Source of the DNA: Escherichia coli
GTDB taxonomy: Bacteria > Pseudomonadota > Gammaproteobacteria > Enterobacterales > Enterobacteriaceae
NCBI RefSeq assembly: GCF_003018235.1
Contig: NZ_CP027437.1
Reading direction: 5' to 3' (one strand)
DNA: 64,000 bases
The notes below the pieces were generated by a model, which worked only from the letters and a program-made list of their open reading frames with translations, ran no database searches and had not been told where the DNA came from. Shown here one piece after another: positions 34,114-40,700 of the stretch (position 1 is its first letter; every line of letters starts with the position of its first letter). A program made the position numbers and the translations under genes.

Positions 34114-34286
34114 TGTCTCTGCTTTTTGCCGCTTTTGTAATACAGTCTACGTCCGGGTTAGCGCCGCCTGGTGAAAGCATCATTGGATGAAAAATCGGCA
34201 ACAGGCTGGCCCCTGTTTGCTTCGCGATGCGAATAAACTTATTATTTGTGTGCCTGAAAACCCCGATCAGTGAGAGTAGTGTACTC

Positions 34287-36476
34287 ATGTTTGTGGAGCA
34301 TAACCTGATAAAAAATATCAAGATATTCACACTAGCGTTTACGCTCACCGTGGTACTTATTCAGCTATCCCGTTTTATTTCGCCACTTGCCATTATCCAT
34401 TCCAGTTATATCTTTCTGGCGTGGATGCCACTGTGCGTAATGCTGTCAATCTTGTTTATCTTTGGCTGGCGCGGTGTCGTTCCCGTTTTATGCGGGATGT
34501 TTTGCACCAATCTGTGGAACTTTCATCTCTCTTTTTTACAGACCGCGGTCATGCTCGGCAGCCAGACGTTTGTTGTGTTGTGTGCCTGCGCAATATTACG
34601 CTGGCAGCTGGGGACGCGTTGGCGTTATGGATTGACCAGCCGATATGTCTGGCAACGTCTTTTCTGGCTTGGTTTGGTGACGCCGATCGGCATCAAATGC
34701 AGCATGTATCTTGTGGGGAGCTTTTTTGATTTCCCGCTAAAGATATCCACCTTTTTCGGCGATGCGGATGCCATTTTCACAGTCGTTGATTTACTAAGCC
34801 TTTTCACCGCTGTGCTGATTTACAACATGCTTTTCTACTATCTCACTCGCATGATTGTAAGTCCCCACTTTGCGCAGATATTGTGGCGCAGGGATATCGC
34901 TCCGTCGTTGAGCAAAGAGAAACGCGCATTTACCTTAAGCTGGCTGGCAGCTCTTAGCGTGCTGCTACTTCTGATGTGCACACCGTATGAGAATGACTTT
35001 ATTGCCGGTTACCTGGTACCTGTTTTCTTCATTATCTTTACCCTCGGTGTCGGTAAGCTTCGCTATCCGTTTTTAAATCTCACCTGGGCTGTTTCAACGC
35101 TTTGCCTTCTGAATTACAACCAGAACTTTTTGCAAGGGGTACTAACCGAATATTCGCTGGCATTTATTCTCGCGGTGCTGATTTCCTTTAGCGTTTGCCT
35201 GCTCTATATGGTGCGCATTTATCATCGCAGTGAATGGCTTAATCGCCGCTGGCATTTGCAGGCGCTGACCGATCCGTTAACGCTCCTACCCAACTTTCGT
35301 GCGTTGGAGCAAGCGCCGGAGCAAGAGGCGGGCAAGAGTTTTTGCTGCCTGCGCATTGATAATCTTGAGTTTATGAGTCGTCATTACGGCTTAATGATGC
35401 GCGTTCACTGTATCCGCTCAATTTACCGTACGCTGCTGCCGTTGATGCAGGAAAACGAAAAGTTGTATCAATTGCCGGGTAGTGAACTGCTGTTAGTGCT
35501 GAGTGGACCGGAAACGGAAGGGCGACTCCAGCATATGGTTAACATCCTGAATAGTCGGCAAATTCACTGGAACAATACCGGGCTGGATATGGGCTATGGT
35601 GCTGCCTGGGGGCGTTTTGATGGAAATCAGGAAACCCTGCAACCCTTGTTGGGGCAGTTAAGCTGGCTGGCGGAGCAATCCTGCGCACATCACCATGTGC
35701 TGGCGCTGGATAGCAGAGAGGAGATGGTTTCCGGGCAGACCACTAAACAGGTGCTATTGCTGAATACCATTCGCACGGCGTTAGATCAGGGTGATTTGCT
35801 GCTCTACGCCCAGCCAATTCGCAACAAAGAGGGTGAAGGTTATGATGAGATCCTCGCGCGACTGAAATATGACGGTGGCATTATGACCCCGGATAAGTTT
35901 CTGCCCCTTATTGCTCAGTTTAACCTTAGCGCGCGTTTTGATTTGCAAGTGCTGGAATCCCTGTTGAAGTGGCTGGCAACACATCCTTGCGACAAAAAAG
36001 GCCCGCGCTTTTCAGTCAATTTAATGCCGCTCACGCTGCTGCAAAAGAATATTGCCGGGCGGATTATTCGTCTGTTTAAGCGTTATAACATCTCCCCGCA
36101 GGCGGTCATTCTTGAGATCACCGAGGAGCAGGCGTTTTCTAACGCAGAAAGCAGCATGTACAACATCGAGCAACTGCATAAGTTTGGTTTCCGGATTGCG
36201 ATTGATGACTTTGGCACCGGTTATGCCAACTACGAACGGTTAAAGCGTTTGCAGGCTGATATCATCAAAATTGATGGCGTCTTTGTGAAAGATATCGTCA
36301 CGAATACGCTGGATGCGATGATTGTGAGATCAATTACCGATCTGGCGAAAGCGAAGTCATTGAGTGTGGTCGCGGAGTTTGTCGAGACGCAACAGCAGCA
36401 GGCGCTATTGCATAAGCTCGGGGTGCAATATCTGCAAGGGTATTTGATTGGTCGCCCGCAGCCATTAGCTGATTAA
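34287..36476 (+). CDS. pdeA: c-di-GMP phosphodiesterase: N-terminal membrane sensor, degenerate GGDEF, EAL domain
   Basis: ORF track 34227..36476; ATG at 34287 gives 729 aa starting MFVEHNLIKNIKIF; DDFGTGYANYERL motif in C-terminal domain. Confidence 0.88.
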   Translation: MFVEHNLIKNIKIFTLAFTLTVVLIQLSRFISPLAIIHSSYIFLAWMPLCVMLSILFIFGWRGVVPVLCGMFCTNLWNFHLSFLQTAVMLGSQTFVVLCACAILRWQLGTRWRYGLTSRYVWQRLFWLGLVTPIGIKCSMYLVGSFFDFPLKISTFFGDADAIFTVVDLLSLFTAVLIYNMLFYYLTRMIVSPHFAQILWRRDIAPSLSKEKRAFTLSWLAALSVLLLLMCTPYENDFIAGYLVPVFFIIFTLGVGKLRYPFLNLTWAVSTLCLLNYNQNFLQGVLTEYSLAFILAVLISFSVCLLYMVRIYHRSEWLNRRWHLQALTDPLTLLPNFRALEQAPEQEAGKSFCCLRIDNLEFMSRHYGLMMRVHCIRSIYRTLLPLMQENEKLYQLPGSELLLVLSGPETEGRLQHMVNILNSRQIHWNNTGLDMGYGAAWGRFDGNQETLQPLLGQLSWLAEQSCAHHHVLALDSREEMVSGQTTKQVLLLNTIRTALDQGDLLLYAQPIRNKEGEGYDEILARLKYDGGIMTPDKFLPLIAQFNLSARFDLQVLESLLKWLATHPCDKKGPRFSVNLMPLTLLQKNIAGRIIRLFKRYNISPQAVILEITEEQAFSNAESSMYNIEQLHKFGFRIAIDDFGTGYANYERLKRLQADIIKIDGVFVKDIVTNTLDAMIVRSITDLAKAKSLSVVAEFVETQQQQALLHKLGVQYLQGYLIGRPQPLAD

Positions 36477-36525: not shown

Positions 36526-37728
36526 TTACAGCACCAGTGCTGCGATTGACGCAGACAGCACACTCACCAGGGTAGAGCCGTAAACCAGTTTCAGACCGAA
36601 GCGAGAAACCACGTTACCTTGCTCTTCATTCAGGCCTTTAACTGCACCGGCGATAATCCCGATTGAAGAGAAGTTAGCGAAGGAAACCAGGAACACAGAG
36701 ATGATGCCTTCAGCACGCGGAGAGAGTGTAGAGGCAATTTTCTGCAGATCCATCATCGCAACGAACTCGTTGGAAACCAGTTTGGTCGCCATGATACTGC
36801 CCACTTGCAGTGCTTCACTGGAAGGAACACCCATCACCCATGCAATCGGATAGAAGATGTAGCCCAGGATGCCCTGGAAGGAGATGCTGTAGCCAAACCA
36901 GCCAGTAACGGTGGCAAACAGTGCGTTCAGCGCGGCGATCAGGGCGATAAAGCCGATCAGCATCGCGGCAACGATAATGGCAACTTTGAAACCTGCCAGA
37001 ATGTATTCACCCAGCATTTCGAAGAAGCTCTGACCTTCGTGCAGGTTGGACATCTGGATGTTTTCTTCACTGGCATCAACACGGTAAGGGTTGATCAGCG
37101 ACAGCACGATAAAGGTGCTGAACATGTTCAGTACCAGTGCCGCAACGACGTATTTCGGTTCCAGCATGGTCATGTATGCACCAACGATGGACATCGACAC
37201 GGTGGACATCGCCGTGGCAGCCATGGTGTACATGCGATTGCGGGAGATTTTGCCGAGGATATCTTTATAGGCAATAAAGTTTTCAGACTGACCCAGAATC
37301 AGGGAGCTGACGGCGTTAAAGGATTCCAGTTTGCCCATGCCGTTGACTTTGGAGAGCAGGAAACCAATTGCGCGGATAATCACCGGCAACACGCGAATGT
37401 GCTGGAGAATACCGATCAGTGCAGAGATAAAGACGATTGGGCACAGCACTTTCAGGAAGAAGAATGCCAGGCCTTGATCATTCATGCTACCAAAGACGAA
37501 GTTAGTCCCTTCGTTGGCAAATCCGAGCAGTTTTTCAAACATTTCGGAGAAGCCTTTCACGAAGCCTAAACCAACGTCGGAGTTCAGGAAGAACCACGCC
37601 AGTAACACTTCGATAACAAGCAGTTGAATAACATAACGGATACGAATTTTTTTGCGGTCGCTGCTTACCAGCAGTGCGAGAATCGCAACAACGGCAAGTG
37701 CCAGTACAAAATGAAGGACGCGGTCCAT
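36526..37728 (-). CDS. nupC: nucleoside:H+ symporter (CNT family)
   Basis: ORF track 36526..37767; ATG at 37728 gives 400 aa starting [20 protein letters not shown]. Confidence 0.92.
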
Positions 37729-37995
37729 ATTTGCTCCAAATATGAGGCAGGTTAAATTTCCGTGCACATTCTATGTAACATGGTTAAGGAAAACGAGATC
37801 TGACACACACTATAATGACGTCCTGTGACAAGCTTCAAAAATAGTGAGCTGTCATACATTTCTGCTATGTTGTGTATGGAAGCTGAAAGTTATGTAAATG
37901 TGCTAACATTAAACATAACCATAACATTCAAGTCATCAATCTTTTCGTAGTCATAATCCTGGTCTATCAGAGAAATCACCACAACCCATTTAAAT

Positions 37996-38014
37996 GAATT
38001 TGATAATCATTATC
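37996..38014 (+). promoter_or_regulatory. Fur box in mntH promoter
   Basis: TTTGATAATCATTATC matches Fur consensus GATAATGATAATCATTATC. Confidence 0.6.
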
Positions 38015-38029
38015 GTTTGGCATAGCATG

Positions 38030-38051
38030 AAACATAGCAAAGGCTATGTTT
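38030..38051 (+). promoter_or_regulatory. MntR operator in mntH promoter
   Basis: Palindrome AAACATAGC-AAAG-GCTATGTTT 13 bp before mntH ATG. Confidence 0.6.
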
Positions 38052-38054
38052 TAG

Positions 38055-39302
<1,248 letters not shown>

Positions 39303-39382: not shown

Positions 39383-40700
<1,318 letters not shown>

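Follow-up and report, generated by a model that had tools for sequence, protein, structure and literature searches.

The mntH promoter of Escherichia coli is a standard example of a promoter that responds jointly to iron through Fur, to manganese through MntR and to peroxide through OxyR. It has been described in E. coli K-12 and in Salmonella Typhimurium (Patzer & Hantke 2001, J Bacteriol 183:4806; Kehres 2002, J Bacteriol 184:3151), and the locus considered here is the same one. Reviews (citing Patzer & Hantke 2001; Kehres 2000, 2002) describe E. coli mntH as repressed independently by Fur and MntR and its promoter as containing separate MntR, Fur and OxyR sites; RegulonDB likewise holds Fur and MntR as mntH repressors and OxyR as an activator. 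mntH-lacZ fusions are de-repressed in a fur mutant and, according to the literature, fur mutants lose the iron control of mntH and keep its manganese control. Using a 24-site model with a cutoff of 10 bits, Chen et al. 2007 (PMC2189734) placed the K-12 mntH Fur site at -56 with a score of 19.9 bits, reported two Fur walkers within 25 bp and listed the site beside those of cir, fhuA and fepA-fes. Through the combined control by Fur, MntR and OxyR, E. coli restricts manganese import to conditions of iron shortage or exposure to peroxide.

Dual control of mntH by Fur and MntR is, in other words, already known, and the sequence-only reading of the stretch analysed here (termed the window; 64,000 nucleotides), which had proposed that a Fur-box-like sequence and an adjacent palindrome before mntH mediate dual repression by iron and manganese, is correct: independent weight matrices, footprints across 80 mntH loci, reviews and RegulonDB all agree with it. 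The reading did not mention the OxyR activator site next to the promoter, the promoter hexamers, which account for the way in which the two sites repress, or the published proposal of an RNA function for the palindrome. As judged from its sequence, the segment 37953-38063 is almost certainly the E. coli mntH promoter/operator region under Fur and MntR repression. This assignment is based on motif presence, statistics, independent matrices and conservation; for binding, metal dependence and the exact start of transcription we draw on the literature and on inference. The finding matters little beyond annotation, and it illustrates that real operator sites are recognisable from sequence alone.

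The window is E. coli chromosome; of 5,426 complete genomes of this species, 5,424 contain the 363 bases 37768-38130 at an identity of at least 95%, in each case beside mntH. The local gene order is pdeA, nupC, mntH, an IS110-family element and ypeC (coordinates of the features are given in the table), and the operators are found in the divergent nupC-mntH intergenic region, within the final 70 bp ahead of the mntH ATG. The product of the regulated gene matches the NCBIfam model NF001923 (MntH) with 622.8 bits (cutoff 430), and E. coli genomes annotate it as mntH. The IS110-family element is a copy of IS621 (a ‘bridge RNA’ recombinase) and is situated between mntH and ypeC at 39493-40473 on the minus strand; its transposase of 326 aa matches PDB 8wt6 (E = 3e-218), and the same site is free of IS621 in the strains compared, namely K-12, O157 PV15-279 and WP8-S18-ESBL-07. 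The nupC-proximal half of the intergenic region (37768-37860) is also strongly conserved across genera and contains a minus-strand sigma-70-like promoter, with a -35 at 37838 and a -10 ending at 37809, as well as TGTGA-type motifs, in all probability owing to the control of nupC by CRP/CytR.

Features of the mntH promoter region and its neighbouring genes (positions in the window)
Feature	Position	Strand	Remarks
pdeA	34227-36476	+	neighbouring gene
nupC	36526-37767	-	longest ORF; the K-12 annotation is 400 aa
OxyR-like site ATAA-N7-CTAT-N7-ATCA-N7-CCAT	37953-37989	+	position inferred; abuts the -35
Overlapping Fur-site cluster	37992-38018	both	weight-matrix hits; ~25 bp, 2-3 sites
Small ORF ypeD (b4819 in K-12)	37994-38083	+	29 aa; annotated in K-12 and O157
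Fur box, classical 19-mer GAATTTGATAATCATTATC	37996-38014	+	16/19 to the consensus GATAATGATAATCATTATC
Predicted -35 TTGATA	38000-38005	+	promoter scan; within the Fur box
Predicted -10 TAGCAT	38023-38028	+	promoter scan; 17-nt spacer to the -35
MntR operator, 9-4-9 inverted repeat AAACATAGC-AAAG-GCTATGTTT	38030-38051	+	arms 100% complementary
Shine-Dalgarno GAGG of mntH	38054-38057	+	read from the sequence; GAGGCA kept across genera
mntH coding sequence (regulated gene)	38064-39302	+	NRAMP-family Mn2+/H+ symporter, 412 aa; ATG at 38064

Both elements are present where they had been claimed, the farthest edge lying 68 bp and the nearest 13 bp from the ATG, and neither of them is a chance match. 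The Fur box, within which TTTGATAATCATTATC is located at 37999-38014, carries three mismatches to the classical 19-mer and is the sole site of this quality in the window; none of 100 shuffles yielded one. When the alternative 7-1-7 description is used, the core TGATAATCATTATCG (38001-38015) agrees with TGATAATnATTATCA at 14 of 15 positions and is the window's sole site with a single mismatch. A palindromic Fur-like 7-1-7 sequence with two mismatches, TGATAAAAAATATCA, occurs at 34306-34320, in the 5'-terminal part of the pdeA ORF.

The weight-matrix scan by which the two sites were to be checked was carried out with matrices for Fur and MntR that were both made without mntH, as a safeguard against circularity. 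The Fur matrix was derived from 11 footprinted K-12 regions (mntH excluded) that Chen et al. 2007 (PMC2189734) give in their Table 3; the sequences were taken from NC_000913.3 and searched for a 19-nt motif by seeded expectation maximisation. This search recovered the Fur consensus TTGATAATTATTTTCATTT, with scores of 19.2-27.9 bits for the training sites and of 10.6-26.3 bits when each was left out in turn. The single best hit in the 64 kb is 38000-38018 on the plus strand with 24.1 bits, which is within the range of the footprinted sites, and two minus-strand hits, 37992-38010 and 37998-38016, reach 17.7 bits each and are offset from one another by 6 bp. These three hits are the top three of ~128,000 window positions (background mean -35.8, SD 11.6). 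The next-best hit away from the mntH promoter, TTGAGAATTGTTTTACTTT at 1266-1284 on the plus strand, scores 16.5 bits; it has a minus-strand ORF of 289 aa (325-1194) on one side and, on the other, a plus-strand ORF whose start is at 1409, and these two are probably amiA and ypeA.

A score like that of proven sites, overlapping sites at a 6-bp offset, which would let several Fur dimers bind, and an overlap with the predicted promoter identify the sequence as a Fur box. Fur clusters typically show such an offset, and the footprinted Fur operators (fepA-fes, entC, cirA, fhuF, sodA, fecA and others) resemble mntH in sharing the motif TTGATAATTATTTTCATTT, in reaching comparable scores, in having overlapping sites offset by 6 bp and in overlapping a sigma-70 promoter. 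In contrast to some siderophore promoters, where Fur-site clusters may be as long as 100 bp, the mntH cluster is short (~25 bp), and it shares its promoter with two further metal/redox regulators.

The palindrome claimed to precede mntH has perfect arms and finds no second match in the window even when three mismatches are allowed, against a chance expectation of 0.01. Its assignment to MntR is based on the other K-12 targets, namely one site at mntS (rybA) and two upstream of mntP, from which the MntR matrix was built exclusively. The mntH palindrome scores 28.0 bits with this matrix, compared with 26.3-30.1 bits for the training sites and 12.5 bits for the runner-up in the window, so that the scan, like that for Fur, places the site in the range of its training sites and provides no refutation. 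The site at mntS, AGATATAGC-ACAG-GCTATATTA, and those at mntP, GAATTTAGC-CAAA-GCTATGTTT and AGACATAGC-TTAG-GCTATATTA, have the same ATAGC-N4-GCTAT core flanked by A/T-rich outer arms; the mntS site was missed at up to three mismatches and was spotted by eye, with four. It occupies positions 1555-1576 of locus L082, where it straddles the annotated 5' end of rybA (1565), a geometry equal to that predicted at mntH. The mntP sites are paired, lie far upstream and reportedly have an activating effect instead of a repressing one, whereas mntH has one site only, which is a perfect palindrome. The mntH palindrome is identical in K-12 and in S. enterica subsp. arizonae and diarizonae. A full-text search of the literature for the half-site AAACATAGC returned unrelated papers only. 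The core, which is like that of the other targets, and a fixed position before mntH orthologues (see below) identify the palindrome as an MntR operator.

Given the positions of the predicted -35 and -10, the Fur cluster covers the -35 and the MntR palindrome, which begins 1 nt past the -10, covers the predicted start of transcription. This start is predicted from the sequence at ~38034-38036, within the left arm of the palindrome; one published Cappable-seq data set contains no start site near K-12 position 25127xx. TTGATA is found in 80 of 81 sequences and the spacer between -35 and -10 measures 16-17 bp in 78 of 81. Within the -10 hexamer, T1 and A2 are conserved in all 81 sequences and T6 in 79, with positions 3-5 varying, and this TAnnnT pattern is what a real -10 is expected to show. 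Over the -35 and the predicted start, respectively, the two sites are situated where either repressor by itself could keep RNA polymerase out or trap it, and Fur over the -35 combined with MntR over the predicted start is classic repressor geometry.

Upstream of the Fur box, the OxyR-like site agrees with ATAG-N7-CTAT-N7-ATAG-N7-CTAT at 12 of 16 positions, which is the top score in the window and is reached by three sites in all. Its central tetrads are conserved (CTAT in 76 and ATCA in 60 of 79 sequences), its outer tetrads are not, and a conservation island at 37964-37980 falls inside the pattern, which abuts the -35, where an activator would be expected to sit. The putative site differs from that of K-12 by one C/T difference (given as the 38985 region). 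The order of elements, i.e. putative OxyR site, Fur/-35, -10, MntR and RBS, is the same as in K-12 and Salmonella. Kehres 2002 reportedly placed OxyR just upstream of the -35, Fur across the -35 and the inverted repeat in the interval from the -10 to the RBS, and the present analysis independently reaches this layout.

In the model that we propose, RNA polymerase would use the sigma-70 promoter formed by TTGATA and TAGCAT. When iron is plentiful, Fe2+-Fur dimers bound to 37992-38018 would cover the -35 and exclude polymerase, and when manganese is plentiful, a Mn2+-MntR dimer on 38030-38051 would cover the predicted start and block either initiation or promoter escape. As each repressor would act without the other, the importer would be made only if both metals are scarce. 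Peroxide-activated OxyR, bound at ~37953-37989, could increase mntH transcription.

Searching reference genomes with the MntH protein yielded 80 mntH loci, which represent more than 20 genera of Enterobacteriaceae, including Escherichia, Citrobacter, Salmonella, Enterobacter, Klebsiella, Raoultella, Kluyvera, Buttiauxella, Kosakonia and Atlantibacter. The palindrome is present at up to three mismatches in all 80; its distance from the ATG is -31 to -35 in every locus but one, where it is -50, and its core ATAGC-N4-GCTAT and its spacer are unvarying save in one locus. The Fur core TTGATAATCATT is nearly invariant and is located 33-34 nt 5' of the palindrome in nearly all loci. The Fur core carries 1.90 bits of information per aligned column and the palindrome 1.92 bits, compared with 1.36 bits between the boxes, 0.61-0.94 bits further upstream and 1.51 bits in the first 30 nt of the mntH coding sequence. 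Both boxes hence read as phylogenetic footprints, better conserved than the start of the gene that they precede.

Part of the conservation of TTGATA could stem from its role as a -35 rather than from Fur, and this raises the question of whether the Fur-like match is mere AT-rich DNA resembling a -35 or an upstream element, with effects of iron on mntH being indirect. The box does contain the -35 hexamer, so that some conservation is expected without Fur, and the match to the classical 19-mer is imperfect at three positions. However, the invariant block formed by TTGATAATCATT comprises 12 nt and runs 6 nt beyond the hexamer, and the site is the best Fur-matrix hit in the 64 kb, with a footprinted-like score and overlaps spaced by 6 bp as at proven Fur operators. 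In addition, the literature describes direct repression by Fur, in line with the fur-mutant phenotype noted above, and we regard the indirect explanation as very improbable.

A second source of conservation to be weighed is the small ORF ypeD, which covers the -10 as well as the Fur box and the MntR palindrome and extends 20 nt into mntH. It is annotated in K-12, and a ribosome-profiling study reported YpeD and named putative homologues of it from Salmonella and Citrobacter (bioRxiv 10.1101/2021.07.02.450978), so that the conservation of 37994-38083 might reflect selection on the protein rather than on operators. However, just 34 of the 80 loci have an ORF that continues as far as mntH; it has no ATG in eight, and in 38, including two Escherichia species, it ends before mntH, mostly after 8-11 codons, and some of the ‘intact’ cases shift reading frame after an indel. 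The DNA boxes, in contrast, are retained in all 80 loci regardless of ypeD, and conservation tracks the motif cores and lacks a three-base period. Selection on YpeD is, on these grounds, a scarcely credible source of the pattern, and the apparent conservation of ypeD seems to be largely operator conservation, which calls for caution, as it is largely explained by the operators beneath. The ATG of ypeD is upstream of the predicted -35 and its expression would therefore need another transcript from further upstream; inspection by eye and a promoter scan revealed nothing convincing or conserved as an upstream promoter for it.

Transcription from an upstream start would also bear on whether the palindrome works, mainly or additionally, as RNA. 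Reviews describe a terminator-like Mn2+-responsive structure in the mntH leader of Salmonella and E. coli (Shi, Zhao & Kong 2014, J Biol Chem 289:11353). The claimed stem of this Salmonella 5' UTR ‘riboswitch’ consists of the same nucleotides, the MntR palindrome followed by TTTT, and the element has no Rfam family and is unrelated to the yybP-ykoY manganese riboswitch of mntP. When transcribed from an upstream start, CAUAGC-AAAG-GCUAUG and the U run would fold into a terminator-like hairpin of a Mn2+-sensing leader. In the element known as ‘UTR1’, a GCUAUG switch sequence reportedly pairs with either of two CAUAGC copies, so that the nucleotides of the terminator stem would be those of the MntR palindrome.

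Several observations fit such an RNA. The two CATAGC copies (38021-38026 and 38033-38038) and the one GCTATG present would correspond to the reported switch; the RNA 38015-38075 is predicted to fold with -17.1 kcal/mol (z = -4.1 compared with shuffles) and has the palindrome as its main stem, the 9-bp stem alone accounting for -9.4 kcal/mol; and the annotation of ypeD implies some upstream transcription through the palindrome. However, the conserved -10 overlaps the first CATAGC and, since the predicted start falls inside the left arm, the main transcript would lack the full stem. Covariation is absent among the 81 sequences: the left arms are all identical, changes are confined to the right arm and no pair has a compensatory change, with pair 4, for example, being C:G in 21 sequences and C:A in 60. 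In those 60 of the 81 the stem is weakened from -9.4 to -4.0 kcal/mol and the downstream T run is shorter too, and the first CATAGC copy is exact in six of the 81 sequences only. The variable position 6 of the right arm (G/A) varies likewise among the MntR sites of mntS and mntP, a pattern that fits a protein operator. A terminator scan gave no terminator-like site, and a search of 37500-38400 against Rfam at E<=1 gave no match, including to the yybP-ykoY manganese riboswitch. Upkeep of the stem by selection together with a U tract, as would be expected of a Mn2+ riboswitch or terminator, is not supported by the aligned sequences, and a main or additional function of the palindrome as a terminator-like hairpin appears unlikely.

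An RNA role is best regarded as a minor, clade-limited possibility next to the function as MntR operator DNA. It is conceivable, though we think it quite unlikely, that the palindrome serves as operator DNA and, in rarer transcripts that start upstream and bear ypeD, as an RNA hairpin as well. Such a double use may be limited to Escherichia, Salmonella and Citrobacter, in which a perfect 9-bp repeat is followed by TTTT. If true, the hairpin, or translation of ypeD across it, would tune mntH independently of MntR.

Within E. coli, the promoter occurs in several alleles. The window has a rare Fur-box allele with A at position 38012 (ATTATC, Salmonella-like), compared with C (ATTCTC) in K-12 and most E. 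coli, this being the one base of the Fur box that differs from K-12 mntH; the exact 74-nt promoter core is found in 13 of the 5,426 complete genomes. The A allele scores 24.1 bits and the K-12 C allele 23.1 bits with the Fur matrix, i.e. the A allele is nearer to the Fur consensus by one step, and it changes residue 7 of YpeD from Leu to Ile. A divergent promoter allele with 4-7 changes is carried by ~1,000 E. coli genomes. In the two of these that were sampled (L085 and L086), the changes are concentrated in the stretch that separates the Fur box from the MntR palindrome (38015-38029); some of them fall within the first CATAGC copy, and in one of the two genomes the -10 is affected as well. 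As for the operators, the C at 38012 is the only difference in the Fur box, and the palindrome is unchanged.
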